DNA from: a virus
Taxonomy: Duplodnaviria; Caudoviricetes
Strand: one strand, 5' to 3'
IMG/VR virus record: IMGVR_UViG_3300027847_001698
Length of the DNA: 64,000 nucleotides
In this document: piece after piece, positions 19,341 to 55,492 of the stretch
Position numbering within the stretch: the stretch's first letter is position 1
Layout: every line of letters begins with the position of its first letter
Program-made: the position numbers and the translations under genes
The notes under the pieces: model-generated
Told to the model about the DNA's origin: nothing
Database searches by the model: none
The model's input: the letters and a program-made list of their open reading frames with translations, nothing else

Positions 19341-19937
19341 CTAGTCCTTGATTAAGGACAAAAACTCAGTTCTAGTCTGAGGTTGATTTTTAAATTTTCC
19401 TTTCATAGCTGAGGTTATCATTGAAGCATTTTGCTTCTTGACACCTCTACATATCATACAGAAATGCTGTGCTTCCATTATTACTCCGACACCATCTGGC
19501 TTTAAATACATGTCCATGGTCTCGGCAATGTCAACAGTCATTTTTTCCTGAATTTGTAATCTACTGGCAAATATATCAACAAGTCTTGCCATCTTAGATA
19601 ATCCTAATACTTTTCCGTTTGGAAGATAACCTATATGACATACCCCACTAAACGGTAGCATATGATGCTCACATATTGAAGTAAAATCAATATTTTTACA
19701 CATTACTATCTCGTCAGCGAGTTCTCCCTCACCTAAACCTTCTTGGAAGAATGTAGATAACACTGTAGAAATATCATGATTGTATCCAGCATACAATTCT
19801 ATCCATGATTTTACAACCCTGAATGGGGTATCAATCAATCCTTCTCTTGTTGGATTATCTCCAATAGATGCAAGAATTGATTTAACATTATCCATTGCTC
19901 CTGGAAACTTTGCTTCTACTTCTTCTTTAGTTATCAT
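19341..19937 (-). CDS. folE: GTP cyclohydrolase I
   Basis: REGLIDTPFRV, SICEHHMLPF, GLSKMARLV, RLQIQE, HFCMICRGV. Confidence 0.97.
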   Translation of the reverse strand: MITKEEVEAKFPGAMDNVKSILASIGDNPTREGLIDTPFRVVKSWIELYAGYNHDISTVLSTFFQEGLGEGELADEIVMCKNIDFTSICEHHMLPFSGVCHIGYLPNGKVLGLSKMARLVDIFASRLQIQEKMTVDIAETMDMYLKPDGVGVIMEAQHFCMICRGVKKQNASMITSAMKGKFKNQPQTRTEFLSLIKD

Positions 19938-22900
19938 TATAATTCCTCTTTTATTTCGTAGTCTAATCCCATAGTCTTTAATTCTGATTGAAATAATCTG
20001 ATTGACTGACTTACGTCATCATCATTTTCATCCAATTTCATATCATCATTTTGGATCATTTTTGAGATAGTAGCATTTCTCTTTTTGATTGAATCCGATT
20101 TAGTGGTAAGAAACTCCCACAAATTAGATTCGGCTCCATGACCTGCTACTGCCCAAACTTCCATTTCTCCTAATCTTTGTCCACCCTTTCTATTCTTGCC
20201 ATCAAGCGGTTGACATGTTTTAGATGAATATGGTCCAACTCCTCTATGGGCTATTTTATCCTTTGATATATGATTCATCTTTATAAAATATTGATAACCT
20301 ACTGCAATCTCATTGATTATATTCTGTTCAAAATAAGATGGATCCTTATTGTGTTCATCATCCCCATAAGGATCATAACACGGATACTCCATTCTGGTTC
20401 CAGTATAATCCATTGCCTCTGATAATTTATCAACTGGGGTTGATTCATACGGAGGCTGAATAACATAGAACGAATCAATATGATTGACAATATACTCTAC
20501 TGATACTGCTTCTAAAAAGAGTTTCATTTGATGAGTATACTCTTTATTTTTAGTACTATCAATAATCTTTATATAGTTTAAAATGAATTCTTTAATTTCT
20601 TCTTCTTCTTCTTTATCTTCGAACTTCTTAACAATAATGTTTCTCATATCTTGAACGGACATTGCCATATGCAACTCAAAGAGCTGCCCAATATTCATTC
20701 TTGAAATCACACCTAATGGGTTCAGTACAACATCTGCACTTTGACCATTTTCTAATCTAGGCATTTCATGTTCTGGAACTATCTTTGAAATGATTCCCTT
20801 GTTTCCATGCCTGTTCCCAATTTTATCACCAACTTCAATTGGTCGTTTATACATTGCTGTTATTTCGAATCTAATCCCATCAATAGATCCACCTTTTACT
20901 TTATACGTCCCTCTCTTCTTCTCAGTGTTATCAATTGCAATTGATTCCAAGAAGTGACCTAACTGATCTTGACTAAGATACGTAGATAGGTTATCAATCA
21001 TACTAGTCCGATCTTTATTCTTTTGTGCTATCAATGATGTCACGAATGTATCATATTGTGGAAACTCTTTATTCCACTTGTTAGCAAAAAGTTTTACATC
21101 AGTGATAACACAATCTTCAGTTACCACCTTTTCAAACGGTTCATCAAATATCATATCCAGACTATCATTAATACCAGTCAATGTCTTTATCTTGGCATAT
21201 ATGTCACCTTTAGTCAAAACATCTCCAATATTAGGAATTCCCTTATATGCAGTTTCATCATCTCCAAGATTCAGTAAAAGCTTATTTGGGGGAACTTCAA
21301 ATGTCAAGTCTAAATAATGAACTGATGTCAATTCATTGTCTTTAACCAATCTATCAGATATTACTATAGCATCTTCAAAGTTATAACCATGCCATATAGT
21401 AACAGCAGTCAATAAGTTTTTACCAACAGTAAGTCTACCTTGTTTCAAATAATTACTTTCTGCAATCATTTGATCCTTCTTGAATGTATGACCTATATCA
21501 AAATAAACATGATAAAAATCATATATAGACAAGAATAACTTTTTGTAACCAATATTAAACGCTTGACATTTCTTGTTATCAAATTGAACAACTATGACAC
21601 TATCATCCTTGAATACCACAGTACCATCTCTAGAAGCGACAAAGCAGAATGAGGTATACTTGGTATACATTCCCTCCACTCCAGATTGTACTAGTGGTAC
21701 ATCGAAGTTTTCTAACATAATAGCATGACGTTGTTGGGAACTAGACATTTGTAATCTAGTTGGATCATCATGTTCTAAAAACGGAACATGTGATATGGCA
21801 ATTGAATTTCTGCAATCACCTTCCCCTTTATTAAACGTCAAATCATTTCCAAGCTGTATTGTTGGTGTCAAATATTGAACTGTTCCACAATTTTCTCTAT
21901 CCCCTGTATCCGCAGGACATACATGACTCTTCATTGAAGGATGTATATCTCTTAGGTATGGAGGAACATTTCCCTTTTCAAATCCACCTGGCCCAGACAA
22001 TGATAACCTAGTTAACATTGCTAACTCTGATAATGGGTTGATTGAAAAGTCAAACTGTACAATTGCAGACTGATTTATATTGTTTAGTATAACTTTAGAA
22101 TTATTCCGAAATCTATTCTTCTTAGATTGTCTCAATGAAACAATCATCTGGTAGAAGTCTCTAGCCAGATGAGAGTAAACTAATTGTTCAGAAAATCTAA
22201 TTCGTTTATTTGAATAGTCTAAATCGTCATTATCCCAATCTCCTAATGAGCTAATCAATTCCTCTAATACATTTGGTGTGGTGAGGAATTCCTTAGTGAA
22301 AATATCTACCTCAGATATTAGAAGAACGTTATTAACAATATCAACGTCCTCTTTTCTATTAAAGTACTGAGATAACAATCTCTTCTTGCTTGAAGGAGAG
22401 TCAATCAAATCTTTAATATCTTGTGCCAAATCGTAATCAATAGTAACATTGGTAGATAACGAATCTTCCTTTGTTATACCAAATCTATCCTTAATCTTAT
22501 CTTCTCCCAAATAAGCATAGACAAGATAACAAAACGGAACTTCCTTACCAAACAGAGTAACATAGTAAAAGTAAGGTCGTCTAAGACGTTGTTTCTTAGT
22601 TAAAGTAAAATTATGAATATTGGTCCTGAGTTTAATTATATCATTTCTTCGAATCAAAGGTCTATCAAACAATTGAAAGATCGAAACTTTTTTGTTTCCA
22701 CCAATAAAGAAATGATTATCTACAAGCCAAGGAATTTCATATTCTAAATCTAACGTCTTATTATCACCATGAACCATCGAAATTTTCAATATTCGAGATA
22801 TTGTTTGTTTTAATTCAGAGCGGTCAACTTTTTCTGGTCGTTCAACAGAAATAGAACTAACTCGAATACCATACTGTTCGCCACATTGCAGCATCTTAGT

Positions 22901-22996
22901 TATATTAGAAACAAGACTGTTTTCCCAGTCTTTCTGTCTAAGATCAAATATATTATGTTTACTTAATATATAATCAGGTACACATAGATTTAACAT
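19937..22996 (-). CDS. rpoB: Multisubunit RNA polymerase beta-like subunit, set 1 (putative non-virion)
   Basis: RDIHPS...CPADT, LEHDDPTRLQMSSSQQRHA, GYNFEDAIVIS, GDKIGNRHGNKGII, SRMNIGQ, GGQRLGEME. Confidence 0.93.
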   Translation of the reverse strand: MLNLCVPDYILSKHNIFDLRQKDWENSLVSNITKMLQCGEQYGIRVSSISVERPEKVDRSELKQTISRILKISMVHGDNKTLDLEYEIPWLVDNHFFIGGNKKVSIFQLFDRPLIRRNDIIKLRTNIHNFTLTKKQRLRRPYFYYVTLFGKEVPFCYLVYAYLGEDKIKDRFGITKEDSLSTNVTIDYDLAQDIKDLIDSPSSKKRLLSQYFNRKEDVDIVNNVLLISEVDIFTKEFLTTPNVLEELISSLGDWDNDDLDYSNKRIRFSEQLVYSHLARDFYQMIVSLRQSKKNRFRNNSKVILNNINQSAIVQFDFSINPLSELAMLTRLSLSGPGGFEKGNVPPYLRDIHPSMKSHVCPADTGDRENCGTVQYLTPTIQLGNDLTFNKGEGDCRNSIAISHVPFLEHDDPTRLQMSSSQQRHAIMLENFDVPLVQSGVEGMYTKYTSFCFVASRDGTVVFKDDSVIVVQFDNKKCQAFNIGYKKLFLSIYDFYHVYFDIGHTFKKDQMIAESNYLKQGRLTVGKNLLTAVTIWHGYNFEDAIVISDRLVKDNELTSVHYLDLTFEVPPNKLLLNLGDDETAYKGIPNIGDVLTKGDIYAKIKTLTGINDSLDMIFDEPFEKVVTEDCVITDVKLFANKWNKEFPQYDTFVTSLIAQKNKDRTSMIDNLSTYLSQDQLGHFLESIAIDNTEKKRGTYKVKGGSIDGIRFEITAMYKRPIEVGDKIGNRHGNKGIISKIVPEHEMPRLENGQSADVVLNPLGVISRMNIGQLFELHMAMSVQDMRNIIVKKFEDKEEEEEIKEFILNYIKIIDSTKNKEYTHQMKLFLEAVSVEYIVNHIDSFYVIQPPYESTPVDKLSEAMDYTGTRMEYPCYDPYGDDEHNKDPSYFEQNIINEIAVGYQYFIKMNHISKDKIAHRGVGPYSSKTCQPLDGKNRKGGQRLGEMEVWAVAGHGAESNLWEFLTTKSDSIKKRNATISKMIQNDDMKLDENDDDVSQSIRLFQSELKTMGLDYEIKEEL

Positions 22997-25749
22997 TCTA
23001 TTTCCGCCACCGGTTTATCATTTGTCATAATTTTTTCGAGAATTCCTGATGATTCCCCATCTCCAGAAATTATTCCATCTATCAAATATGATTTTGGTTT
23101 GCTGAATGCAAGTGCAAGAAGCCATGATTCCCTAGATGGGATCGACTCAATACTAACCATTTCATAATCTGTTATATCTCTTTCCGGATTAACTCTCCAT
23201 CTCATTTTCCCATTACGCATCATTTGAGAGACTATGCACTCATAATGAACCAATAGGACTAATTTATAAGCCGAGTATACACCGAATAGCTTCATAAGAG
23301 AATCGTAATAAGAATTCTTTTCACTTGCATGAAATACTTTCTTTACACGACTCAAATCATTTACAATATCTTGTTGTTGAGAAGCGTCTCCAGTTGATTT
23401 CTTTGCTGCACCTGATGTATGAAACGTTCTTAACACTAACTGGGTTGATACTTCTCCCATTGCTTGTGCTGCAATAATGCCAATGTATTTAGAATGTAAA
23501 TACTTATGACTTGACCCATAACATGTTTGACACACGCCATGGTCTTCACAAAACAACGGAGATCGAACATGTACTAATTGTCCCAGAAATGAATGATAGT
23601 TACCATATGTAATTTCAACTAATCCATCATCTGTTACACTATACCGTCCTATTAGAGACTTTGCTAATTTCAATCCTCCATTTTCCTTCTCGGGAATATT
23701 AATTGCAAGAGTATCTACTGTACCACAATCTTCGTTTTTACCCAATTCAAGATTAACAGAACAATACACCAATTTTCTAGTTAAGTATCCAGAATCTCCA
23801 GTGTTAAGTGCTGTATCTAATAATCCTTTTCTTGAACCATAGCAAGAGATGAAAAAATCATCTCTAGTCAATCCACCAATTAGATTACTCTTAATTGGTG
23901 TTTCAATGATCTTCCCTGCAAAGTTAGAAACAAATCCTCTACACAGCACAATCTGGTTCGCTTGATCCCATGATCCTCTTGAACCCGAATCGATGAATAG
24001 GGAATAAGGGAATGCTTCTCGTACCTTCTCTTGTATTTCTGTTGATTGAATCTTAGAGAATTTATCACCCCACTCTAATTCAGGATCATCCATTATATCG
24101 GACACTATTGTATCAGCGCCTTTTAATAACATATTCTTTAATGACATAGTACAACCAAATCGAGATGTAGACTTAAATCCTAACACCTTTATATCGTCTA
24201 AAATATCACACACTTGATCAGAGTTTCTAGTTCTAGCCAAATCATCCAACAAAACTCTCAACAGTTTTTTATCAATTACTTCATTGATGAATGGATAATC
24301 TGGCAATATGCTATTGAATTCAACTCTTCCTTCGTATGTATCAATGCCATCTGCTATCACCTTTTTAGATTCGTCTTCTTTGGTTAAGAGATATAATCCT
24401 AAAATTATATCCTGATTAACACCAAGAATAAGACTTCCAGTAGTTGGACAGATCAGATTGTTCTTTATAGATAACTTCTCTTTGCATTCTGCCGTGGTTT
24501 CTTCTGTCAACGGTCTATATATTGCCATTTGATCTCCATCAAAATCTGCATTATATGGCTCGCATACCATCGGATGTATTTTAATTACATTGTCAGTATT
24601 GATTAATACATCAAATGACAATATTCCCATTCTATGTAACGTTGGTTGTCTATTAAGAATAACGGATGTACCCTCACAACAGTTCTTTACAACATCTAAT
24701 AATGAGAGATCTTTAATTTTTATACATGAATCAATATGATCTATTGCTGAATCATATCGTTTGAATGTTCTCTTCTCTAGTAATTTGTTTGCTAGTTCCA
24801 ATTTATACAATTCAAGTGCAAGCACATAAGGTATAGAGCATTGATTTAATCTCAAACTAGGTTCAGGTGCAATAACTGCTCTCCCTGAAAAATCAACTCT
24901 CTTGCCCAAAATCGATCCTCTGATCAATCCTGTTTTCTTACTCAACTTCTTGAATATAAAATCATAAAGAGACGTTACATGTCGTTGAAGATTTCTAAAT
25001 GTGGCTTCCCGTATTCCTGCAACCGCAGCAGTTTCTAAATGGTCGTCCTTCATTAAAATCGAGAAATTCAAGATAGTTGTTAAATATCTATTCATCTCAT
25101 CTCGCATTTGAGCATCCTTTGTCTTAGACACTGGTCTAAACTCAGGTGGTAAGATAATTATATTAGACATGTAAAATTTAGACAAGTGAGTCTCAACTAT
25201 TTTCCACATCGCATCTTTATCTTTCTTTCTATCACACTCAAACTTTACGAGATCGTAAACTCCATCAACACCAATAAACACAGGTTTATCATCTGGTAAT
25301 GTTGGAAGTTCCTCTTCATCTGATTCCCTCTCTTTGAATATTCGTTCAACTAATACATAACTAGCCAACTCTTCATCAAAATAATATGCATAAATCTTTT
25401 CATTAAAGAACAGATTCTCTATCATGTCCCTCATTTTTGTCTTTCCTGCCCTAATAATTAATTGATACATAATAGGGTTTAGTATTGGAAAGGGTAACAC
25501 TATTTTTGCAAATCTTTTTCGTCTCTCATTAGAATATGTAATGTCTACATCACATGTTCCACATTTATCTCCAATTCTAGATCTTCCCCAATACGTTTTA
25601 CAACCACACCATGTAGTTTTGACTGGTCCGAATATCTTTTCACTGAAAAGACCTTCTGGGTGAAATCCGTGCTTTGAATAAATTTTAGAACTTGATACTT
25701 GGGGTATACCCTCGCAGAATTCATCTACGTTAAAGAAATCTAATTTCAC
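22990..25749 (-). CDS. rpoC: Multisubunit RNA polymerase beta'-like subunit, set 1
   Basis: N-terminal Zn ribbon CGC...CGTC, LGKRVDFSGRAVI, NRQPTLH, catalytic YNADFDGDQMA, TGDSGYLTRKL, TQLVLRTFHTSG; GTG start. Confidence 0.95.
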   Translation of the reverse strand: MKLDFFNVDEFCEGIPQVSSSKIYSKHGFHPEGLFSEKIFGPVKTTWCGCKTYWGRSRIGDKCGTCDVDITYSNERRKRFAKIVLPFPILNPIMYQLIIRAGKTKMRDMIENLFFNEKIYAYYFDEELASYVLVERIFKERESDEEELPTLPDDKPVFIGVDGVYDLVKFECDRKKDKDAMWKIVETHLSKFYMSNIIILPPEFRPVSKTKDAQMRDEMNRYLTTILNFSILMKDDHLETAAVAGIREATFRNLQRHVTSLYDFIFKKLSKKTGLIRGSILGKRVDFSGRAVIAPEPSLRLNQCSIPYVLALELYKLELANKLLEKRTFKRYDSAIDHIDSCIKIKDLSLLDVVKNCCEGTSVILNRQPTLHRMGILSFDVLINTDNVIKIHPMVCEPYNADFDGDQMAIYRPLTEETTAECKEKLSIKNNLICPTTGSLILGVNQDIILGLYLLTKEDESKKVIADGIDTYEGRVEFNSILPDYPFINEVIDKKLLRVLLDDLARTRNSDQVCDILDDIKVLGFKSTSRFGCTMSLKNMLLKGADTIVSDIMDDPELEWGDKFSKIQSTEIQEKVREAFPYSLFIDSGSRGSWDQANQIVLCRGFVSNFAGKIIETPIKSNLIGGLTRDDFFISCYGSRKGLLDTALNTGDSGYLTRKLVYCSVNLELGKNEDCGTVDTLAINIPEKENGGLKLAKSLIGRYSVTDDGLVEITYGNYHSFLGQLVHVRSPLFCEDHGVCQTCYGSSHKYLHSKYIGIIAAQAMGEVSTQLVLRTFHTSGAAKKSTGDASQQQDIVNDLSRVKKVFHASEKNSYYDSLMKLFGVYSAYKLVLLVHYECIVSQMMRNGKMRWRVNPERDITDYEMVSIESIPSRESWLLALAFSKPKSYLIDGIISGDGESSGILEKIMTNDKPVAEIEC

Positions 25750-26327: not shown

Positions 26328-27029
26328 TTATTTCTCCTTTAGTATATGTTTAAGAGTTTCAAAATGCTTATTATGCTCATATGGATTATCCATATTTACA
26401 TATCCTAACATCATCTTAGCTATATTTAAAGAATCCGGAGTTAAACACATTCGCTTAATAGCGGAATCCATGCAAAATTTATTATTTAGTGGACTTAAAT
26501 TGGGATGTACACCTGTACAATATAAGCCCCCTCTTAATGTTTTGTCAATAGAAATCTTAAACTCTGTGATTCCATAACCTAACTGCCTTAATTCATCTGG
26601 GTTTGTCCTGATTATTTTTCCATTGTACAGTATCGAATTAATCGGAATATAATCAACCCATATTATCCATTTATTATTAACAAGATATCCTTGTTTTAAA
26701 ATTTCATTTATGGCTTGACATCCTTCAGTGGTAGCGAAATAGGTTAATCTCTTTACATCTGCCATTATCCTAGTCAAACTTGAAGCCAATGAAACGTGTG
26801 CCTTAACTTTACGTGATACTATAAATTTTCTAATGTCCCTTAATACATCAGATAAATTGATTTGAATATCGCCTATTATAATCAACCCTGTCCTATCTTT
26901 TGATAATCTATATCCCGATTTTTGTTTATTTATTAAACATACTGAATACATATTATCTTCATCATAATGTTCCCAATTATTAATATCTGATAACGTTAAT
27001 AATTTTGATACTTCATCTAATATGGTCAC
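26328..27029 (-). CDS. Prokaryotic E2/UBC-like domain protein (module 2)
   Basis: HPNLSPLNNKFC (HPN...C E2 signature) followed by MMLGYVNMDNPY; aligns by eye with the E2 domain of 33916..36039. Confidence 0.6.
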   Translation of the reverse strand: MTILDEVSKLLTLSDINNWEHYDEDNMYSVCLINKQKSGYRLSKDRTGLIIIGDIQINLSDVLRDIRKFIVSRKVKAHVSLASSLTRIMADVKRLTYFATTEGCQAINEILKQGYLVNNKWIIWVDYIPINSILYNGKIIRTNPDELRQLGYGITEFKISIDKTLRGGLYCTGVHPNLSPLNNKFCMDSAIKRMCLTPDSLNIAKMMLGYVNMDNPYEHNKHFETLKHILKEK

Positions 27030-27304
27030 GCCGTTCCTGTTAATGGATTAACCGTGACCTCTAAATTGTTATCAAAATCTTTTCTGAACGTCAAAGCAAA
27101 CTTCTTTTGTGGGAATAATGTACATTCTGTTTTGACTTCAGCTTGTACTGTTTTAATAAAATCTAATATTGAAAATCTGGACCCGTCTACCTGTTTAGGT
27201 CTTTTAGAGGAATCAGATCTAATTGATATTTTCATATGTGGATTTTCATATATAAATCCACTTAATGCGTTTTCATTTTCTACTTGGTTAATTAATCGAT
27301 TCAT
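27026..27304 (-). CDS. Small protein between E1-like and E2-like genes; candidate beta-grasp/Ubl
   Basis: 92 aa; strand-strand-helix-strand pattern and C-terminal tail LEVTVNPLTGTA. The fold is inferred only. Confidence 0.3.
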   Translation of the reverse strand: MNRLINQVENENALSGFIYENPHMKISIRSDSSKRPKQVDGSRFSILDFIKTVQAEVKTECTLFPQKKFALTFRKDFDNNLEVTVNPLTGTA

Positions 27305-27851
27305 TTCTTTCTATCCTTTGTCCATCTTGTACATGTGCTCTAAGATTATAAACGTAGTAAGTATTAGGAAATAATAACTCTTTGTCTATTACATTACATA
27401 CTATACTTGTTGCCAAATCTACATATAAGAAATCTTTAGCTACAGAGTATTCGGAATAATCATCTGTAACTTTAGGGTCATCTCTGGTATCTATTATTAA
27501 AGTAGAACCATCTAGTGATATTCTTGCATGACTATTAATTGGTCTAGCCTTATCATCTCTACAATCTAAAATAATTCCTGTCTTATCTATATCCGTCTTA
27601 ATTTCTTTATGATGACAAACCAATTTTCCCAAATCTAATATTCCTAAACTTTCTATTAGGTCGGCTATTGCTACAACCTTTTCCACTCCTGCCATTGATG
27701 TATAAAATGGAGGTTCTACTACCCCATATGATATTACATCTTTGTCATAAATATGATAATCACGAAAAACTTTATTTCTCCAAAGTTTGAAGAATATATT
27801 TGAGCCAACTGTTCCACATCCAACTATCCGAACAATTTTAGTTTCATACAT
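27288..27851 (-). CDS. Short, degenerate ThiF/E1-like protein (module 2)
   Basis: IVGCGTVGS nucleotide-binding loop, YDKDVI, GVEKVVA, ILDCRDD; lacks the NLxR motif. Confidence 0.7.
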   Translation of the reverse strand: MYETKIVRIVGCGTVGSNIFFKLWRNKVFRDYHIYDKDVISYGVVEPPFYTSMAGVEKVVAIADLIESLGILDLGKLVCHHKEIKTDIDKTGIILDCRDDKARPINSHARISLDGSTLIIDTRDDPKVTDDYSEYSVAKDFLYVDLATSIVCNVIDKELLFPNTYYVYNLRAHVQDGQRIERNESIN

Positions 27852-28190: not shown

Positions 28191-28670
28191 CTATAAGTAA
28201 TTCTGGAATTCCCCAGCTCTAAAATCAAATGTACTAATAGCGTTGAATGGGTAACCATTCGTCATAGAATTCATTTTTTTAATACCCTCAATATCATTAT
28301 CAACGTAATAAATCTTATCTACATCAAAATTAATTTCATCATGTGTACCATCTATAATACTTTTTATTGTATCCACTTTATATTTTATAACTTCACTATA
28401 TGTAGTATTGGAATAAAAAATTCTTGGAAGAGTGAATATTTTTTCAGGTTCCATGCCCCTCAACAAACAAACCAAGTAAACAAATGGCTTATCTATCCTT
28501 GGGCGACCTGTTAACACAGACCATCTTACTCCAAAATCCTCATTGGGGTTTATATATGTTCCTGATGTTATACATTGTTTAGTGTTATGTATCAATCCTT
28601 TCCAGTTCGTATCACCACAAAGTGTTCCATCAAAATCAAAAAGGTATAATATATTTCTAGATTTTAACAT
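28191..28670 (-). CDS. HAD-superfamily phosphatase-like protein
   Basis: LFDFDGTL (motif I), VLTGRP (motif II), YYVDND (motif IV); RBS GAGGAGG. Confidence 0.8.
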   Translation of the reverse strand: MLKSRNILYLFDFDGTLCGDTNWKGLIHNTKQCITSGTYINPNEDFGVRWSVLTGRPRIDKPFVYLVCLLRGMEPEKIFTLPRIFYSNTTYSEVIKYKVDTIKSIIDGTHDEINFDVDKIYYVDNDIEGIKKMNSMTNGYPFNAISTFDFRAGEFQNYL

Positions 28671-32294: not shown

Positions 32295-33161
32295 TTACAA
32301 CAGTGTTAGAATCTCAGTGTCATCGTCATCATCTGCACCGTGTTGTATTCCCGCAGAATTTACAGCCTCTTCTTGGCTAATGACATCATGATCCATCAAT
32401 AATACATAATCTTGCAAACAAGCACTTCCATCTTCCATTGATTCCATTGCTTGTTCTAATCTTTCTCTCAACATATCAGCGGGATCTACAATAGGAATGT
32501 TCATTCCTAGAAAATCTTCACGGTTTCCTACCATTCCTGTCTGATGCTTTACTTGGCCATGGGAATTATAGTTATAATGTCCAGTATGAACAACTGCTTT
32601 TTGTTGATAGACCTTTTTACTAACTTTCTCAAGATCAAGATCAAACTTTTTAGTATTTATAATATTAATATCCAACGGTAGTTGAATTCTACCAACTGGA
32701 CTATTAATATTAATTATACCTGAATGAATAATTCTATTCACAAACAATAGAGAAAATTCATGATTAACATTGATATACTCATCATCGGTGCCTGAGAATT
32801 TTGTACAACCAGAAGGATGTCTATGAATTACTCCATTGAACCCCGCTGGTGCTTCTTCTTTAAAATCTATAGTTGCAGCAGTTACTTCTTGTTCAGGAAG
32901 CATCCACTTATTTTCCAGCATTAATATGCCATCGACAACCTTACCCTTTAAATACAATGCAAATTCAACAGAAGAATCTGGAAGATCATATTGGATTTGT
33001 AACATGACTTCCTGTAAATCACTTGGAATTACGACATCTACACTGTTGATTATTTGTAGAGCAGGATTTTCATTTTTCCAAACTACTTCCCCCGAACTCT
33101 TTTTTATTTTCATGTCTGCTTTAGACGTATCTACTGATTCATCCTTTATGGTCGTTAGCAT
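32295..33161 (-). CDS. JAB/MPN (JAMM) metallo-isopeptidase
   Basis: Glu in VEFALY plus HRHPSGCTKFSGTD, an exact H-x-H-x7-S-x2-D match. Confidence 0.88.
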   Translation of the reverse strand: MLTTIKDESVDTSKADMKIKKSSGEVVWKNENPALQIINSVDVVIPSDLQEVMLQIQYDLPDSSVEFALYLKGKVVDGILMLENKWMLPEQEVTAATIDFKEEAPAGFNGVIHRHPSGCTKFSGTDDEYINVNHEFSLLFVNRIIHSGIININSPVGRIQLPLDINIINTKKFDLDLEKVSKKVYQQKAVVHTGHYNYNSHGQVKHQTGMVGNREDFLGMNIPIVDPADMLRERLEQAMESMEDGSACLQDYVLLMDHDVISQEEAVNSAGIQHGADDDDDTEILTLL

Positions 33162-33909
33162 TGTACACTTCCTCTGTTACCGGTTGTTGATCTACATTCT
33201 GGCCCAAATAAATTCCTTCTAATAATCGTCCTGTATCAAATGTTATAAGTTTATTAAATAAGTTATCTTTATCATTGCATGAAAAACTTCCATCGTCAAT
33301 TAATGAGTATTTTGGCATTAGAATGTGATTACATACCAAATTTGCAACTAATTGAGCAGAGCAAACAAAAGAAGGAACTATATCATAATTCCCCCGTGCA
33401 CTCGTACCCATTACAGTTGTATGTCTTGGATTTCCGTCTATTGTAACAGACAATCCATCATAACCTAATTTCCAAACCTTTGTATGTTCTGAAAACTGCT
33501 TTATATCTTTAAAGATATTATCTCTACAATCTATAACTACCTCTGGGTAACTCCCCTTCCCCTTAAGTACTTCCAATGAGTTTTCATCATACTTTTCATT
33601 ATATATAACTATATCAATATCAATTCTTCTTTCAAGGATAAGCTCTAATACTACATCTGTTTTATTTCTTCCAATATCACATATTCTAAATAACGTTCTA
33701 TTCAGATTAGTATTTTCAATTGTATCCGAATCGTACATAACTAGTTTCTTAATTTGGCCAGTTAACGCCAAATTAAGAGCAACCCATGAACCTATTCCGC
33801 CAAGTCCAATTACTAGTGCACAATTATATTCTCTAAGATTTAATGATCGTTGTCTGTCACGTACTTCTTCTCCCCGATCATTAACTATATTATAAATTGA
33901 TTGTGTCAT
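33139..33909 (-). CDS. ThiF/MoeB/E1-like adenylating enzyme (module 1)
   Basis: VIGLGGIGS, YDSDTIENTNLNRTLF, DIGRNKT, VIDCRDN. Confidence 0.92.
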   Translation of the reverse strand: MTQSIYNIVNDRGEEVRDRQRSLNLREYNCALVIGLGGIGSWVALNLALTGQIKKLVMYDSDTIENTNLNRTLFRICDIGRNKTDVVLELILERRIDIDIVIYNEKYDENSLEVLKGKGSYPEVVIDCRDNIFKDIKQFSEHTKVWKLGYDGLSVTIDGNPRHTTVMGTSARGNYDIVPSFVCSAQLVANLVCNHILMPKYSLIDDGSFSCNDKDNLFNKLITFDTGRLLEGIYLGQNVDQQPVTEEVYNANDHKG

Positions 33910-33915
33910 TATAAA

Positions 33916-36039
33916 TCACTCGTTTGTTGAGTTTGTTGAATATCTAATGTCCGGTGAATTATCTATATATTGTATACAATCTGACGCGGATACTATTTTA
34001 TCCTTTATATTCTTATATGCCTCCTTTTCCCAATCTTTAGGTATTATGTCAGATTCTTTAGTCTTCTTTTTGGGTGGAGTTAATAACAATCCAAACTTTT
34101 TCCTTACTGTTTCTGAGAGAAATCCCCATGCCCTACAAATGACATCTCCACCTAATAATGAAAGATTCATGATCACCTTTTCAAAAGTTTCAGGATCATT
34201 AAAAAGCATTGGTCGGGTATATGAATTTTTACAATAGAAATATAAAGGTTTATCACTATCGTGGGAACCATCAGGCAAAAATACACCTATAACAGTTACA
34301 CCATTAGGATGTACCCAAGTTAATCTTCTATCAGAGTTTAAGATGAAAGATGATGAAACAGTTTCGGCATTACGCATTTGATCTAAAATTCGTATATATA
34401 CAGATAATTCTTCAACATCAATTTTATCATCTATAGCCTCTTTAATTACGTCTACATCTATTAATTTGCCGTCCTTAATAATTTCAACTTCATCTTTTCC
34501 ATTTATTGTTCTTGAGGGAGACAGCCCTCTATTATCATCCTTTTCATCATCTATTATTAAATCTCCTGCACCAATAGCAATCATTTTAGATTTAGATGAT
34601 TTTTTAGATACTTTAAGAAATTCTGATTCTGATTTGCATTTAACCTTTAATATTTTGTGATAATACGATTCATTATAAGCACTATCATAATTTAGAATCT
34701 GTAATAACGATTCCATTTTTATTAAATGCTCTTCAATTTTTTCCGTGGGTCCAGAAAATTTAATATTTCCTAAATCACCTAAGCATACTGAACCATCAGA
34801 AGATACATTTGGATGGGTGGATTCTGTAAAAGAAAATCCATCTCCATTAATATATAACCATTTTACTCTAAACATTCTTAACTCTTTAGGAATTATTTTA
34901 CAAACACCATCTCTAAAAAATCGATCAGGTAATATATCTATCTTCTTTTTCCATAACAAATTAGATCTATAATTACTACTAAATCGTTCATGGGTAGCTA
35001 CTTCCCATCCATATTTAGTTAACAGACCAGATATAGTCAATCCTCTATGAAACGATTGTTGTGAGCTGTCTCGATTTTCATTTGAAGCTCGTTCTAATAC
35101 TTTGGTTAATAAACTTGCATATATTTCAGATTTCCCTGATTGATAGATTGTGTCCCACTCTGCGGTAGCCATAGTGCGTTTTAATTCTTTCAAAATCCCT
35201 TCGGAATCTAAAGTAAAGTCTGCATCTGATGGGGAATATTTACATTCCTCTAATCTCTTTATAAGTTTACATATAGATTCATCTTTTCCGTCAGCTTCCC
35301 AATGTTTAATATCTATATCATGAAGTCTATTATGAACGAATGTAATTCGATCAAGAATGTTTTCTAGTAATACATTAACCTTTTCTACATCTCTTGATCG
35401 TCCACTTCTCATCAAATATCTTAATACTGGCCATTTTATATAAGTGGTTCCATCCACACACATAAACCCAACTAAAACTGAATTAGTTCCAACAAAGAAG
35501 ACCTCTGATACTAAACTATCTTTGACATCACAAATATCTTGTAATAATCTTGAATTTACAACTGAAGTAAGATTTGCAAATCCTGGATTTCTAAATCTCA
35601 TATTTGGACATATATTGACACATAATTTTCTAAATGTTACATCGGAATCATTTAAAGGAGTTCCTAAATATTTAGAAAATGACGTAGCCATACTTGCATG
35701 TGAAACTCTAGGATTACATGTAATATATTTTAAAAGATCACTAAGTCCAAAGTTTGTTATAACTAACTTGTGATTCATCTTTAATGACTTACCATATTCA
35801 TCCAAGGTTAGCTGTTCGTCATAAACTAGACTATATGAATTCAACCTATGGGTGTCACCTGGATCGTCAGATATGACATCTCTTACTACTACATTATTTA
35901 CCAAATCTAAATATTTATCATTTACCAAAAGTTTAGAAAGACATTTATTTAGCTTTTCTATAAATCTTCGTTCAAATGTATAATCTCTATGGTTATCTGG
36001 GGTAAACAAACGAGAAAGGGTTTCTTGTGTTCTGCTCAT
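33916..36039 (-). CDS. Large multidomain protein containing a prokaryotic E2/UBC-like domain (module 1)
   Basis: STHPNVSSDGSVCLGDL (Cys codon 34783-34785) followed by LLQILNYDSAY; preceded by a coiled-coil-like segment. Confidence 0.75.
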   Translation of the reverse strand: MSRTQETLSRLFTPDNHRDYTFERRFIEKLNKCLSKLLVNDKYLDLVNNVVVRDVISDDPGDTHRLNSYSLVYDEQLTLDEYGKSLKMNHKLVITNFGLSDLLKYITCNPRVSHASMATSFSKYLGTPLNDSDVTFRKLCVNICPNMRFRNPGFANLTSVVNSRLLQDICDVKDSLVSEVFFVGTNSVLVGFMCVDGTTYIKWPVLRYLMRSGRSRDVEKVNVLLENILDRITFVHNRLHDIDIKHWEADGKDESICKLIKRLEECKYSPSDADFTLDSEGILKELKRTMATAEWDTIYQSGKSEIYASLLTKVLERASNENRDSSQQSFHRGLTISGLLTKYGWEVATHERFSSNYRSNLLWKKKIDILPDRFFRDGVCKIIPKELRMFRVKWLYINGDGFSFTESTHPNVSSDGSVCLGDLGNIKFSGPTEKIEEHLIKMESLLQILNYDSAYNESYYHKILKVKCKSESEFLKVSKKSSKSKMIAIGAGDLIIDDEKDDNRGLSPSRTINGKDEVEIIKDGKLIDVDVIKEAIDDKIDVEELSVYIRILDQMRNAETVSSSFILNSDRRLTWVHPNGVTVIGVFLPDGSHDSDKPLYFYCKNSYTRPMLFNDPETFEKVIMNLSLLGGDVICRAWGFLSETVRKKFGLLLTPPKKKTKESDIIPKDWEKEAYKNIKDKIVSASDCIQYIDNSPDIRYSTNSTNE

Positions 36040-36046
36040 ATTAAAT

Positions 36047-36080
36047 AAAAAAGGTGGCTAGAGATTTATCCCTAACCACC
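36047..36080 (-). terminator. Intrinsic terminator between the Ubl-fusion gene and the E2 gene
   Basis: Minus strand GGTGGTTAGGGA-TAAA-TCTCTAGCCACC-TTTTTTATTT: 12-bp stem (two G-U pairs), 4-nt loop, U tract. Confidence 0.85.
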
Positions 36081-36101
36081 CTCCTCTATTTATATAATTG
36101 C

Positions 36102-36710
36102 TTACGCAGCTTTATTTACTTTGCCGACTTTCAACGAAAGAATACGACCTTCACCCAGAACGATATCAGTCTTACCGGAAATGTCGGTATTAGTTTTGAC
36201 ATCAGAAACAGCAAACGAGGCCATTCCTTGTTCAGTGGCATAAGTACTAATCGCGGAGAGGGTGTCATTTGCGTCCTCAACCTTGAACTTTGGTTCGCCG
36301 TTGATTACCAAAAGATACGCACCGTCAGCGAGAGACACCTTATAACCTTTCGGAAATGCCTTGTTTGGCGGGCAGTGAACATGAACACGTCCACTCTTTT
36401 TCTTTGCTGTAAACCCAGACAATGTATCAGCAGTCAATGAAGCAGGAGAACCAACCTTGACCATGGGCTTCTTAGATGCTTTGATAGTTGTCACTCCGCT
36501 GGTTCCACTTCCTGCAGAATACGTCACAAATCGACCACCATTATAAACAGAAAGCGTTCCATTTTCTACTAATGTGGTCAGTTCTTCCTTCAGCGATGCT
36601 GATGCCTTTGATGTAAAAAGTACATCCTTGGATATTCTGGTTGCGGTTGAGTTTTCGTTTTTCTTGACATACAACACGACTTTATTACTTACACTTTTTG
36701 TTAGTGACAT
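36102..36710 (-). CDS. Winged-helix + basic linker + C-terminal ubiquitin-like (beta-grasp) domain fusion, ending NKAA
   Basis: Residues ~5-60 fit a wHTH pattern. The last ~72 residues (AYLLVING.PKFKVED.helix.SFAV...DIVLGEG.RILSLKVGKV-NKAA) fit beta-grasp topology with a free small-residue tail. The gene directly precedes E2-E1-JAB. Confidence 0.55.
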   Translation of the reverse strand: MSLTKSVSNKVVLYVKKNENSTATRISKDVLFTSKASASLKEELTTLVENGTLSVYNGGRFVTYSAGSGTSGVTTIKASKKPMVKVGSPASLTADTLSGFTAKKKSGRVHVHCPPNKAFPKGYKVSLADGAYLLVINGEPKFKVEDANDTLSAISTYATEQGMASFAVSDVKTNTDISGKTDIVLGEGRILSLKVGKVNKAA

Positions 36711-36744: not shown

Positions 36745-38193
36745 CTATTTTAATATCTTTTCTTCTATTTGCCAATTCTTTTCTGTATAGAATCCAATCC
36801 GGTACTTTGCCCGATTGATCAAATTATCATCTCCTATATCGACTAAATCTATTACGACTGGTTGTTGTTTATCTGGATGAGATCTAACAACCCGCCCAAC
36901 AGCCTGTTCTAAATTAGAAACAGGAGTAGCCAATATTAAACAATCTAATATTTCTTTATTAGTACCGTCTCTAGCACTTCCATAAGTACTAAAAACTAAT
37001 CTACGCTGTAGATGAGCATCACGCTCATTCTTCGATCTTGGGATGAAGAAACCTACTTCTTCTTTGTTTTTACATGCCTGCGAGGCATGATCTAAAATTT
37101 TAATTCTATCTGCCAAAAATAATAAGTGTCTGGTCGACTTAGACACTTCCATGACCAATTTTTTTATAGCTTTTTTATACGGCTCGGACTTGACTAACAA
37201 ACTCAAATATCTAGCCGTGTCAAAAAACGGTTTAATATTGTTATCCCGATCGTACTTTGTAAGATGTGTAATGTAATTTTTATGATTTTTCATAACACCA
37301 TGATCAAATTTCAATAAGATCACTTTCGGTGCCATAGTGTCTATACCCGAGGAAACCGGTACGTATACCTGTCCAAGATGTTTATATATTATATCTGTAT
37401 TTCCATCTAATCTACTTGGAGTAGCAGACAAACCATAGATTCGTTTAGATGGAATCCAAATCGAAGTTCTAGAAAACTGTTCAGCACTTACCGAAGTATG
37501 ACATTCATCCCATATAGCAATTCCAATTTGTGCATCATTCAATACCTTCTTCATTAGTTCGGGGGGCTTCCGCTTAACCAAACTACAAAATGTTTGAACA
37601 GTTGTGATTATTATATCCTTTTGCAAATCTTCCTCAAATGAAGAAGACCTAAGCCTAGAGATATTATCTTCCGATATATCTGTATGCTCTAAAAACTTAT
37701 CGACCCATTGACTAGCTAAAGAGTCCTTATGTACAAATATTATTGATTTTTTTCCAATTGTACATATCGAGTGGATGCTTACTACTGTCTTTCCTTCTCC
37801 AGGACTTAAACATAGTATACCATTAGTATTCGTTTCAAACCACTTGATCGACTCTTTCTGTCTTTCATTTCTTGGGACGACCTTGGAGGTTATACTTATA
37901 TCCTTCCCTACAATACTTCTATCTGTTATCTGAAACATTGCAGGGAGTTCATAAAAACGTGGAATCATTAATTCGCGAGTTGACTTATCTGTATCGTAAT
38001 ATTTTCTAATATCAACATTTGGAGCATCACTATCTGCCGTTTGTTGATATGACCTGGATTGTCTAGTCAAATCTCGAATTATTCTTGCAAACCATTCCTT
38101 GTCCTTATTGGAATCAACTGGAATTCGAATTGCAGAATCTTTTATGAGAGTTTGACTACATCCCATATTGCGCCCACGAATTAGGAGTTTCAA
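36745..38193 (-). CDS. SF2 helicase, UvsW/XPB-like
   Basis: LSPGEGKT, IWDECH, GLSATP, STY, EQAVGRVVR. Confidence 0.9.
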   Translation of the reverse strand: MKLLIRGRNMGCSQTLIKDSAIRIPVDSNKDKEWFARIIRDLTRQSRSYQQTADSDAPNVDIRKYYDTDKSTRELMIPRFYELPAMFQITDRSIVGKDISITSKVVPRNERQKESIKWFETNTNGILCLSPGEGKTVVSIHSICTIGKKSIIFVHKDSLASQWVDKFLEHTDISEDNISRLRSSSFEEDLQKDIIITTVQTFCSLVKRKPPELMKKVLNDAQIGIAIWDECHTSVSAEQFSRTSIWIPSKRIYGLSATPSRLDGNTDIIYKHLGQVYVPVSSGIDTMAPKVILLKFDHGVMKNHKNYITHLTKYDRDNNIKPFFDTARYLSLLVKSEPYKKAIKKLVMEVSKSTRHLLFLADRIKILDHASQACKNKEEVGFFIPRSKNERDAHLQRRLVFSTYGSARDGTNKEILDCLILATPVSNLEQAVGRVVRSHPDKQQPVVIDLVDIGDDNLINRAKYRIGFYTEKNWQIEEKILK

Positions 38194-38602
38194 ACAACTT
38201 TACATTGATTAATTCTAATCCTGAAGTTGGCGGTAAATTGTCGTTGACTTGTTCAAAGCACCACCTTGATAATTCTTCTGCTGTTGGGATAAATGGAACT
38301 TTTATAAGATTCCATGTGTCCTTAAATGGTTCAAACATTTCAGCTATCTCTTTGTCATTCTCGTAATAAATAAATCCATGATCTAATACATCATGTACAT
38401 ATGTTGTCATTACATCTTTCAAATCCCCAAAATCAATAACCATTCCTTGTTCAGATGAGCCTGATTCGCTATTTAGATATCCTGAAACTGTACATTCTAG
38501 TCTATATCTATGACCATGGGGATTTCTACATTTACTTTTATGATTAGGGACTCTGTGACCTGCATCAAATTCTATAATTTTAGTTATTCTAATCATCTTC
38601 AC
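38156..38602 (-). CDS. queD: 6-carboxy-5,6,7,8-tetrahydropterin synthase QueD
   Basis: FDAGHRV...CRNPHGHRY, VIDFGDLK, LDHGF, PTAEEL, FETPNSWA. Confidence 0.95.
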   Translation of the reverse strand: MKMIRITKIIEFDAGHRVPNHKSKCRNPHGHRYRLECTVSGYLNSESGSSEQGMVIDFGDLKDVMTTYVHDVLDHGFIYYENDKEIAEMFEPFKDTWNLIKVPFIPTAEELSRWCFEQVNDNLPPTSGLELINVKLFETPNSWAQYGM

Positions 38603-49922: not shown

Positions 49923-52900
49923 TTATCCTATATCAGTCTCTAACATCATTCCACGCATATAAGTATCAAATAGATCCTTAGTGGGAGATGTTCTTGGGGT
50001 TCTGTATTCTGCACTTCCTGTCTGAATAATATCAGCTACAATTTGATCTTTAGTTACATGATCATCAGCTAAAGGTCCAAAGAATTCTCTTAAAATATTA
50101 GTTGCTCCATGATTTATAATAGAATAACTATCCATCTCACCAATTCTCTGTCCTCCACCCTTACCAGACATAGCCTGTTTAGTAACAGAGCTTACCATTC
50201 CAGTTGATCTTGCTGACAATTTAATTCCACTTTGTTGTTCAAGTTTCTTGTAGTATAGGTATCCTACAGCAATATCAGTGGATGTACTTGTTCCATACTC
50301 TTTAATTTTTAATTTATATCCTTCCTTTGCACCAACTAACCGTAAGGCAGCTCTAATATGTATAATAGTTGGCTCTTGGAATGGAGGAACAATGATAGGA
50401 ATAAATCCACCTCTATCTACAACAGTTTTTAACCATTTTTGATATGTAGCATTGGTCATTGAATTGACTGCAGTAACCACTTGTCTAGAATAGGACTTTC
50501 CTTTAGTTCCATCTAATACGCCTAACACTTTAGTAAGTAGAGCAATAGTCTTATCATTTTTTCGTGGTCCATAACCAATTATTTTAGTAGCCATGAATTT
50601 AGAAATTAAGGATAAATATAATTCTTTAATGGTTGAGGGGTTCATTCTATTTACAATAGCAATAGGATTAAGAATGATATCTACATGTTCACCCCAAGGA
50701 GTTAGTGGCATATTCTCTTCTTTTTCAATTTTAGCAATAACGCCCTTTCCACCATAGTTGTTAGTGATCTTGTCTCCAAGTTCAGCAACCTGAGTTTCTT
50801 CTATTTTAAATCTGATTAATACTCCAGAAAACTGCTGTTTCTCAGAACCAACTCTAGCAGTAAATTTCTTTGGTGTTGCGTGACCTTGTGCTTCCTCATA
50901 TTTTTCTTTATATGCAGCATGTGCCTTCTTTAATGCAGGAAATTTACTTATAGGAGAATTTGCATAAACCTCTAGGGAAATAATCTTTCCACCTGGAGAT
51001 TTTGTTATTAGCTGACCTTGCTGTATTTCATCTTCTTCGAGACCAACAACATCTTCCACTTCTTTAGAAATTCTCATTAGAAGTGGTTCGCCCCGCTTAG
51101 TCAATACTCCTTCTTGATTAATAAAACTAACTCTGTCTGTTGGTTTTACCAAAATCTCAATTTCATGATATGCTTCAGATGTTAATTTTGTTTTTGCAAT
51201 TTTGTCTGAAACAATATATCCATCCTCATATGAATAACCTTTCCATGTCATAACTGCACACAATAAATTAGTTCCTACAGAAATAACGCCATCTTGAATA
51301 TGTTTCCCTTCCGCAACAATCTGATTCTTTTTAACCTTCTGATTCTCAACCACAATAGGCTTGAAGTAATTTAATGCACTTTGTCCCTGACCAGCTCTTA
51401 ATATCTTAGTAGCAAGAGATATAGTTTGAAGTCTACCAGATTTTAGTTTTATAACAATAGCATTAGTGGTAATACTTCTAACTATACCATCACTAATTGC
51501 TTTCTTAACATAGTTATCAGATAACATAGATGTTAATACGCTTTCATATCCAGTTTGAACAATAGGAGCTTCTTCTCCATTTATAGGAATAGCCTGCCGA
51601 CCTTGGCTTCCTGCGAACATAACTCTAGCTCCATCACAAGATCCGATAAATGGAATCATAACTGAATTTACCCCTAAGATTCCTGACTTCTCATCTCTGC
51701 CATCAGTCTTATCAACAAAGGCACCTCTAGAATTAGTTATAGCAGCACCAACAGAAAGCTGATTAATTATTCCTACATTTTCACCTTCTGGTGTATCCAT
51801 TGAATCTATATTGCCATAATATGTAGGATGAATATTTCTAGCTTGTTTTGTTATTGCATTAGAATCTGGTATACCACCTTCACCAATAGGCTTAAGTCTA
51901 GTCAAGCATGATAATTCTTCAGTAGGATTAATATTCTCTAAATCATCCATCAGTTTAGAGTTAACAATTCTCTTTATAGCTTCTGTTACATCTAACTTGT
52001 ATTCAGCATCTTTAAACCCTGAAATTCTACGCTCTCTGTAATCTGTATATGACCCCAAAATCAATTTCTGAATTTGGTGGGCAAATACTTCTGATGTTCT
52101 AATTCTTTGCTTAGATATATCATTTCGGTCATCAACTCTTTCCTTTACTAACTCTTCACAAATATATAAAACAATTTGGGGATATGTAAATGGTAGAAGT
52201 TTTGATTTCAGTACTTGAGTAGCAACAGGTTCCATTATATTCTCTAATACTTGCTTTACTTTCCATGTAGAGTTTCTATTACCTGTTATTTTGATTAATG
52301 CCTGTTCAAATGTTTTTTGATCCTCTAAGTTATCTTCTGTAAAAATATTTGGAGATTCTGCAAATGAATTTAATAAAATTCTTGCGGCATCTGTTTTATA
52401 ATCTACAACAATAAAGTTACCATCACTCAATATCAGATAATTGATTCCTTCAGGTGGTTCTGTGTCAACTATTTTATATTTAACACCAAACAATCGACAT
52501 GTCTTCTTAAATCCAATGTAATAACCCATGAGAACAATTAATGGGAGTTTATATCCCCCTATCAATATCTGAAAGTATTGCTTTTTAACGGTCTTCTTGA
52601 GGTAAATAGTAGAAACGGCATATAGCGTTTCTAACTTGGCTTGTCCCTTTTTAACAAAGAAAATAGGATCTAATATGATCTGATATGTAAGATACTTCTT
52701 CTTTCCATTTATTAAAAATGTACCATCACCCATTAGACGGGGTATTTGGATTTCTACTTCATGTTTATTTTTCTTGTCATCTTGTAATACAACAATATAC
52801 CTATCATATAAAGAAGGATTCAAGTCACCAGGATCAGATGGGATAGGTTCCTTTTTCATACTGAATAGTTTCAATGGATAATCTTTTTTCTCCAACAATT

Positions 52901-54122: not shown

Positions 54123-54125
54123 GTC

Positions 54126-54551
54126 TTACTTCAATTTCTTTAATGTAACAAGTCCTTTCTTTTTACTAGCAGTAAGACTCCATTTGCCTTCCAATATCTC
54201 AGACGTAAATACGAAACGTTCTGATCCTGCATTCACATTTCCTTTCAGATTATAGCTTCCCTGTCTTGTCTTTCCTGCAAACTTAATCCGTTGTTTAAAT
54301 GTTTGAGGTTTAGAAGCTGGCATTATACGGCCCATAATCTCATCCCCCTTTTTTAACAGTTCAATTGGTGTTTGAGATATGAGCATATATGACGCCCATC
54401 CGTCTGCAAGATTGGTTCCATCTGAAACTGAATTAAAATATTTAAAATGTAAAGCTAACTCTTTCCCACTATTTGAAAAGGATATTGCTAATATATTATC
54501 CATCTTTGCTTCAAACAGAATACGTTTAATGTAAAAAAATTTATTATCCAT
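54126..54551 (-). CDS. Hypothetical protein, putative virion component
   Basis: 141 aa; N-terminal ILFEAK. Confidence 0.65.
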   Translation of the reverse strand: MDNKFFYIKRILFEAKMDNILAISFSNSGKELALHFKYFNSVSDGTNLADGWASYMLISQTPIELLKKGDEIMGRIMPASKPQTFKQRIKFAGKTRQGSYNLKGNVNAGSERFVFTSEILEGKWSLTASKKKGLVTLKKLK

Positions 54552-54553
54552 GG

Positions 54554-55417: not shown

Positions 55418-55492
55418 AATATTAAATATTCCTTATTTATTATTTTGTTCTGAGATTTAAGGTTTTATAAATATGAACCATAACCAACTGTC

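Follow-up and report, generated by a model that had tools for sequence, protein, structure and literature searches.

Gene set at the locus

The DNA analysed here is a 64,000-nucleotide stretch (the window, to whose first letter all positions refer) of virus record IMGVR_UViG_3300027847_001698, a 193.5-kb IMG/VR entry with an estimated completeness of 61%. The element is a tailed phage encoding a large terminase, a Dda-type helicase, a DNA ligase, a split topoisomerase II and Mre11/Rad50. Between positions 32295 and 36710, four consecutive, co-directional genes on the minus strand code, in this order, for a putative ubiquitin-like (Ubl) modifier, an E2-like protein, an E1-like protein and a JAB peptidase, and it is probable that together they form a self-contained Ubl protein-conjugation pathway of a marine jumbo phage. 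The features of the cassette are the following.

36102..36710, minus strand: modifier gene, 202 amino acids (aa), comprising a predicted winged helix, a linker, a predicted beta-grasp domain and the end N-K-A-A
36507..36710, minus strand: predicted winged helix-turn-helix domain, modifier residues 1-68 (VIA structure match)
36105..36425, minus strand: predicted extended beta-grasp domain, modifier residues 96-202 (core 131-202), with conserved C-terminal tail (predicted local distance difference test, pLDDT, 84-93; Foldseek)
36047..36086, minus strand: terminator-like hairpin in the gap between the modifier and E2 genes, an 18-pair stem followed by TTTTTT
33916..36039, minus strand: E2 protein, 707 aa, with a conserved N-terminal region, a central UBC domain and a variable C-terminal region
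34636..35067, minus strand: predicted UBC fold, E2 residues 325-468, with H409-P410-N411 and the catalytic-type C419 (codon 34783-34785)
33139..33909, minus strand: minimal ThiF-type E1, adenylation domain only (PF00899), 256 aa
32295..33161, minus strand: JAB/JAMM metallopeptidase with an acidic C-terminal tail, 288 aa; JAMM motif H113-D126 at 32784-32825

The four open reading frames (36102-36710, 33916-36039, 33139-33909 and 32295-33161, all on the minus strand) were recovered where a first-pass annotation of the window had placed them, and so were all the motifs that it quoted: the 288-aa protein has HRHP, six residues and SGTD, the 256-aa protein GLGGIGS and NLNR, the 707-aa protein HPNVSSDGSVC ... 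LNYDSAY, and the 202-aa protein a terminal NKAA. These motifs are not due to chance, each being invariant or nearly so in the alignment of its family. The modifier and E2 genes are separated by 62 nucleotides (nt), the E1 gene starts 6 nt after the E2 stop, and the JAB gene overlaps the E1 stop by 23 nt.

Central UBC domain of the E2 protein

Relatives were gathered by exhaustive HMMER search and from contigs bearing JAB and E2 relatives. Among 1.84 billion representative proteins, the search revealed 65 relatives of the E2 protein, each between 500 and 780 aa in length. In a 58-sequence E2 alignment, P410, N411 and C419 were found to be invariant and H409 to be present in at least 90% of the sequences. 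The Pfam model UQ_con (PF00179) matched residues 405-465 with an E-value of 2.9e-4 (20.9 bits), and all 17 sequence matches in the PDB were E2 enzymes, in which the His-Pro-Asn motif, the Cys and the downstream loop were all aligned; comparison of the E2 family profile with the PDB yielded a low-complexity match only.

An AlphaFold2 model built from the 58-sequence alignment reached a pLDDT above 90 at about residues 320-460. With Foldseek, the top matches of this model in the PDB were almost all E2s, with weak E-values. Structural alignment with VIA-align superimposed residues 325-468 on residues ~2-146 of solved E2s with Z-scores of 5.5-6.7 and root-mean-square deviations (rmsd) of 3.4-4.2 over 103-116 residues. 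In all, 111 chains matched the model at Z of at least 5, and the whole UBC core was covered by residues 325-468. UBC and Prok-E2 models were returned for the same residues by AlphaFold DB clusters and the ESM Atlas. Matches to the UBC domain took up the hit lists, and no fold was assigned to residues 1-320 and 540-707. The UBC fold that had been expected somewhere in the 707-aa protein was thus located at residues 325-468, where more than 100 solved E2 chains were matched, and on the strength of the aligned active site and the modelled fold the centre of the protein is predicted to be a true, if divergent, UBC domain whose active site is of the classical kind, set inside a larger protein. The region N-terminal to it (~115-320) is conserved throughout the family, and the C-terminal region is variable.

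Modifier, E1 and JAB peptidase

The modifier alignment comprised 12 sequences, namely that of the window and 11 homologous ones, taken from the gene upstream of E2 relatives. The AlphaFold2 model derived from it had a mean pLDDT of 79, rising to 84-93 for about residues 100-200, and consisted of a winged helix (1-68), a disordered linker (69-95) and a well-modelled domain (100-202). Residues 1-68 superimposed with VIA on Z-alpha/Z-beta domains (Z 9.2-9.6, rmsd 1.5-1.8, 60-64 residues) and resembled MarR/ArsR-type domains too. The C-terminal domain displayed a strand and helix order of beta-beta-alpha-beta-(beta)-beta, and Foldseek matched residues 131-202 to the PB1 domain of NBR1, the Ubl domain of parkin, DWNN, the RBD of ELMO1, UBX and the bacterial Ubl 8tyx_A (BilA-type), with probabilities of 0.82-0.97 and weak E-values (0.03-0.13). 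The beta-grasp domain anticipated at the C-terminus of the gene product was accordingly modelled as such. As the winged helix is absent from the modifier homologue of locus L004, the beta-grasp domain would be the conserved core of the modifier. An ESM Atlas feature search with the C-terminal domain gave nothing usable, the Atlas's own model being poor, and a Foldseek search of viral structures revealed no clear relative.

At the C-terminus of the modifier, N199, K200 and A201 were invariant in the 12 sequences and followed by either A or G. After N-K-A-A/G, no residue follows in the window and in eight of the 11 homologous sequences, and either a single residue (M, K or Q) or 18 residues in the others. 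The end is Ala-Ala in the window and in eight of the 11 homologues, and Ala-Gly plus one residue in L004 and L006. This pattern of N-K-A-A/G with 0, 1 or 18 further residues reads as the signature of a C-terminus exposed by a peptidase.

The E1 protein matched PF00899 with 78.6 bits (E 5e-22), exceeding the cut-off of 28.1 bits. In 13 E1 sequences, G35, G37, G38, G40, D60, N68, R71, K83 and D130 were invariant and R19 and Q20 nearly so; with these adenylation residues conserved, the identification of the 256-aa protein as a ThiF/E1 enzyme was upheld. The sole invariant Cys is C128, in the Mg-site motif DCRD; where the window protein has C183, its relatives have A, I, Y or V, and the protein has no CxxC zinc motifs. 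Y175, P179 and S180 were likewise invariant, and by alignment to ThiF-type enzymes the Y175-S180 region should be the crossover region. The solved proteins nearest to the E1 profile in sequence were MccB, PaaA, ThiF, MoeB and UBA5, with Cap2 and BubCD farther away. NCBIfam gave sub-threshold generic ThiF/MoeB matches only, and PHROGs three unnamed families and nothing more.

Prediction of a complex between E1 and modifier residues 96-202 gave a score of 0.56, compared with 0.00 for the best of three controls, which is graded as 'weak support'. Contacts agreed to at least 75% between runs, and the pLDDT of the partner was at least 82. In the calibration of the test, the mark was reached by 58 of 80 solved complexes and by two of 110 mismatched pairs, seven of the solved complexes and both mismatches having scores of no more than 0.60; these counts are only rough, because the alignments used were those of the present analysis.

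In the JAB peptidase, E66, H113, H115, S123 and D126 were invariant in 17 sequences, which corresponds to a complete E...HxH-x7-S-xx-D zinc site. The window protein had no match in Pfam at E-values up to 1; Prok-JAB (PF14464) was matched by 13 of the 17 family members at E of at most 0.1, the best value being 2e-5. The invariant zinc site and these family matches confirmed the family of the 288-aa protein as one of JAMM peptidases. The sole PDB match of the JAB profile was the JAB domain of Citrobacter BubCD, and it was weak (E 0.055).

Conservation of the gene order and possible traces of expression

The order modifier, E2, E1 and JAB was found to be kept in ten other distinct phage lineages, whose proteins share 20-45% pairwise identity with those of the window. 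The loci with this order are L002, L003, L004/5, L006/7, L057, L059, L060, L061/65, L066, L067 and L068; L062 starts at E2, and L058 comprises E2 only. The synteny that the cassette was expected to show in related phage contigs is thus present. Mre11/Rad50 lie directly downstream in most loci, and the helicase and QueD genes upstream where the contig extends that far; in L004 and L007, Rad50 is upstream instead.

A strong hairpin in the gap between the modifier and E2 genes was revealed in all 12 loci folded, including the window, with unrelated sequences and, in most cases, a T-run. The modifier gene also differs in composition, with a GC content of 0.429, the highest in comparison with its neighbours, and a GC content at third codon positions (GC3) of 0.379 versus 0.17-0.28 in the neighbours.

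Near-identical DNA was detected in seawater and marine metagenomes of many studies from 2017-2025. Metatranscriptome contigs at least 99% identical to the region were found in four seawater runs from four studies, and only the modifier gene was represented in every run, most of the E2 gene having no contig at all. This coverage is suggestive of transcripts of the modifier gene; because the data are assembled contigs, expression levels cannot be ranked and DNA carry-over is possible.

Other searches were less productive. Comparison of E2 with 50,697 deposited phage genomes, at both the DNA and the protein level, gave zero matches, word-indexed homologue searches with E2 and the modifier returned self-matches only, and scanning viral contigs with a single E1 or E2 protein returned nothing. 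Scans with a smaller modifier alignment yielded one new locus, L065, which is nearly identical to L061. A back-translated HPN...C...GD DNA pattern had no match in GTDB genomes and viral contigs and, being too strict because the motif spacing varies, is uninformative on hosts.

In dozens of unrelated viral contigs of IMG/VR (L009-L056), a JAB-like gene directly adjoins a ThiF-like gene and is usually upstream of it. The fetched loci contained no long E2 and no NKA[A/G] modifier, and the pair looks like a different, more widespread phage pair.

A second, degenerate gene set

A second set of related genes lies on the minus strand 4.4 kb downstream of the cassette (26328-27851), where it immediately precedes the first pair of RNA polymerase genes; L003 and L004 retain it as well. 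Its members are assigned tentatively.

27288..27851, minus strand: E1', a candidate degenerate E1 paralogue of 187 aa (hhalign to the E1 family)
27026..27304, minus strand: protein of 92 aa ending ...PLTGTA, a possible second modifier
26328..27029, minus strand: E2', a candidate short E2-domain paralogue of 233 aa with HPN-x8-C (hhalign to the E2 family)

Alignment of E1' to the E1 family profile with hhalign gave a probability of 96.6% (E 6e-10). GxGxxGS, DxD, K and DCRD are retained, and the N-terminal R-Q and NLNR are absent in all four copies; judging from these residues, E1' alone is unlikely to be active in adenylation. E2' aligned to the E2 family with a probability of 95.5% (E 1.4e-8), with HPN, Cys and N-x-D-x-x-Y in register, and homologues of it were found in L003 and L004. 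Homologues of the 92-aa protein end ...PIPSSA and ...PIVNSA. In L002 (15363-16253), the E1' paralogue is 296 aa long and ends ...YPNVA, which is similar to the ends of the second set's small proteins, so that a segment like the 92-aa protein appears to be fused to its C-terminus. E1 and E1' might form a heterodimer, or the set might provide a second route of conjugation.

Proposed pathway and alternative explanations

The earlier reading of the cassette as an operon of Ubl, E2, E1 and JAB genes is supported by the folds, the catalytic residues, the conserved terminus and the synteny. These features and the conserved hairpin were observed; from them we infer the chemical steps, the direction of transfer and the targets. 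The modifier would be made in excess, as suggested by its own codon bias and the terminator hairpin after its gene. In the window phage it would already be mature at ...N-K-A-A, while in relatives the JAB peptidase would have to trim 1-18 extra residues first. The minimal E1 would bind the beta-grasp domain and adenylate the C-terminal Ala (Gly in some relatives) with ATP/Mg. Because E1 has no conserved Cys, a classical E1~Ubl thioester is not expected, and the activated modifier would pass to Cys419 in the classical His-Pro-Asn site of E2 either directly or via the region of the invariant Tyr175 and Ser180 of E1. E2 would then move the modifier onto a lysine of the target, its conserved N-terminal and variable C-terminal extensions picking the substrate without a separate E3; in agreement with the first-pass annotation, no E3 was recognised. 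The JAB peptidase may reverse the conjugation as well. DNA-associated proteins of the phage or the host are the most likely targets, because the modifier has a winged helix and because of the genomic position of the cassette, which mostly lies between the helicase/topoisomerase and the Mre11-Rad50/RNA polymerase genes.

Several observations weigh against a conjugation pathway. The UQ_con score of E2 (20.9 bits) is below the gathering cut-off of 27 bits, with three of 58 family members matching at E of at most 0.01, and structural Z-scores of 5.5-6.7 do not decide the matter by themselves. The beta-grasp call depends on a single model from 12 sequences with Foldseek E-values of 0.03-0.13, and the modifier terminates in Ala-Ala without a C-terminal Gly-Gly as the activated residue. 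Across 13 E1 sequences no catalytic Cys is conserved, the nearest solved relatives of E1 in sequence, MccB and PaaA, are peptide-modifying enzymes, and the predicted complex with the modifier grades only as 'weak support'. Lastly, metatranscriptome contigs can neither rank expression nor exclude DNA carry-over.

Other roles for the four genes were also considered. The same chemistry might be aimed at the Ubl immunity of the host, such as Bil or the type II cyclic oligonucleotide-based antiphage signalling system (CBASS), with JAB stripping host marks off phage proteins or E1 and E2 tagging and thereby inactivating defence proteins. As the bacterial E1/E2/JAB systems characterised so far defend their hosts against phages (PMC11601596), interference with them by a phage copy is plausible, and the cassette is located among replication and transcription genes of the early/middle type. 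For erasing host marks, however, a stand-alone deconjugase would be enough, whereas this phage has a dedicated modifier of its own, whose conserved terminus co-varies with the enzymes in 11 lineages, and none of the four proteins has a family-level match to the Cap2/Cap3 models; we therefore consider counter-defence rather improbable. The minimal, ThiF/MoeB-like nature of E1, with no catalytic Cys domain, would also suit a sulfur-carrier route, in which the enzyme thiocarboxylates a beta-grasp protein in the manner of ThiS, MoaD or TtuB for thio-modification of nucleotides, tRNA or DNA, JAB maturing the carrier. Operons of JAB and sulfur carriers are known (PMC1779556), and a homologue of QueD, an enzyme of the 7-deazaguanine pathway, is encoded two genes upstream. 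Against this, an HPN-Cys E2, which has no role in sulfur transfer, is kept beside E1 in every locus, no rhodanese, cysteine desulfurase or thiolase partner was found among the neighbours scanned, the terminus is Ala-Ala or Ala-Gly and not Gly-Gly, and a winged helix would be unusual for a carrier, which makes this route very unlikely.

Hardly any weight is given to the view that E1 merely modifies the end of the 202-aa protein, in the way that MccB and PaaA act on their peptides, and that no conjugation takes place. Among proteins of solved structure, MccB and PaaA match the E1 profile best in sequence (E 1e-16), and the conserved N-K-A-A/G tail could serve as a recognition element; the matches are, however, limited to the shared nucleotide-binding core (profile positions 26-101), where ThiF, MoeB and UBA5 score nearly equally. 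MccB acts on Asn, but the last residue of the modifier is Ala or Gly, and both the beta-grasp fold and a conserved UBC-fold protein with an invariant Cys would be left unexplained.

Within the conjugation pathway that we favour, a more elaborate arrangement is conceivable but doubtful, namely a eukaryote-style ubiquitin system that combines an HPN-Cys E2 in a large, substrate-selecting protein with an E1/E1' heterodimer and a DNA-tethering modifier. By analogy, the active E1 and the degenerate E1' might, though this is unlikely, form a pair like SAE1/UBA2 or NAE1/UBA3, with E2' and the second small modifier belonging to the same system. The modifier would in that case, as a tentative suggestion, attach a nucleic-acid-binding winged helix to proteins of replication, repair or transcription and thereby tether or mark them on DNA during infection. 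If such a system existed, the lineage would bear on the origin of the HPN-type E2 and of the split E1.

The E1/E2/JAB/Ubl systems that have been studied in prokaryotes to date, namely type II CBASS, Bil and Bub, serve the immunity of the host. The complete and conserved set described here belongs to a phage and is located mostly within its replication/repair/transcription module. If the set conjugates proteins, viruses of prokaryotes, like those of eukaryotes, would have Ubl modification among their tools. The system would be compact and independent of an E3, and would offer a classical HPN-Cys E2, a minimal E1 without a conserved catalytic cysteine that offers a useful contrast to the oxyester route of Bub, and an Ala-ended modifier bearing a DNA-binding-type domain. 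Since many studies have seawater metagenomes in which the phage recurs, and since metatranscriptomes contain genes of it, activity of the system in the ocean is probable.

Comparison with known systems

The cassette was compared with Bil, Bub and type II CBASS, the features of which were taken from PMC11601596 and PMC1779556, and with PRTRC; it belongs to none of them. With Bil (BilABCD; type 6d of Iyer et al. 2006) it shares four separate genes for Ubl, E2, JAB and E1 and the predicted logic of adenylation, E2 Cys, target Lys and reversal by JAB. It is nevertheless not a member of Bil, as its E1 of 256 aa has one adenylation domain and no conserved Cys, in which it departs from the E1 architecture that defines Bil (PMC11601596). 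Type 6d E2s are without the classical His (PMC1779556), whereas His-Pro-Asn is conserved in the phage E2, which is, moreover, embedded in a protein of 500-780 aa. The phage modifier further differs from that of Bil by its predicted winged helix and its Ala end, and the phage genes are not located in a host defence island.

Likeness to Bub types I and II (formerly 6E/DUF6527) is found in an E1 without catalytic Cys, in a modifier terminus exposed by JAB, in variable N-terminal domains of the modifier and in the weak match of the JAB profile to BubCD. Bub E2s work with an invariant Ser (with His) by way of oxyester intermediates, and fusion proteins and the DUF6527 protease BubE are also encoded in Bub operons (PMC11601596). 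The invariant Cys419, the separate genes and the absence of a DUF6527 match in Pfam among 20 window proteins scanned place the phage cassette outside Bub.

An E1 adenylation domain, an E2 domain and a JAB peptidase are shared with Cap2/Cap3 of type II CBASS. With the PADLOC models for Cap2/Cap3, none of the four proteins was matched at family level; E1 had weak matches to Cap2 models (best E 7e-13), confined to the adenylation core. Cap2, in which E2 and E1 are fused, acts on the C-terminal end of a CD-NTase. In the phage, E1 and E2 are separate, no CD-NTase was found among the neighbours and a dedicated beta-grasp modifier is predicted, so that assignment to type II CBASS was rejected. Cap2 adjoins a CD-NTase and an effector, whereas no effector is present at the phage cassette.

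PRTRC (TIGR03734-03742), which occurs on plasmids, integrative and conjugative elements and in some phages, is likewise a mobile-element cassette with ThiF-like, JAB-like and small proteins. TIGR03736 scored 27.2 bits compared with a cut-off of 144.75, and no other PRTRC model matched any of seven proteins, which excludes the cassette from PRTRC; no ParB gene adjoins it.

Eukaryotic UBC E2s (PF00179), large extended ones included, share with the phage E2 the His-Pro-Asn motif and a Cys a few residues on. Their P-N-x-x-S-P-x-N loop aligns with N-x-D-S-x-Y of the phage E2, and the fold match extends over the whole core. Sequence identity is 15-22%, and the partners here differ, being a prokaryote-style minimal E1 and a JAB peptidase. 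In a full-text search of the literature, no description of such a phage system or family was found; a preprint on Asgard viruses reports viral ThiF homologues without the rest of the set.

Further features of the genome

In the window (1-64000), nearly all genes are on the minus strand, and the GC skew is negative throughout to ~62000. No tRNA genes were found in the 64-kb window. The phage has two separate sets of multisubunit RNA polymerase genes, coding for beta/beta' subunits at 19937-25749 (1019 and 919 aa) and at 49923-59665 (1399 and 1390 aa). Two such sets are reminiscent of phiKZ-like jumbo phages with their virion and non-virion polymerases, but the subunits are unsplit here. A search of the 193-kb record for tubulin homologues was negative.

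The QueD gene (6-pyruvoyl-tetrahydropterin synthase family) is located at 38156-38602, between the helicase and topoisomerase genes, and its position is kept in L059 and L067; it hints at 7-deazaguanine chemistry. A 159-aa protein encoded at 28191-28670 has no Pfam match and opens with ...LFDFDGTL..., a motif of the DxDGT type usual in HAD phosphatases; L002 and L003 retain this protein directly after Rad50.

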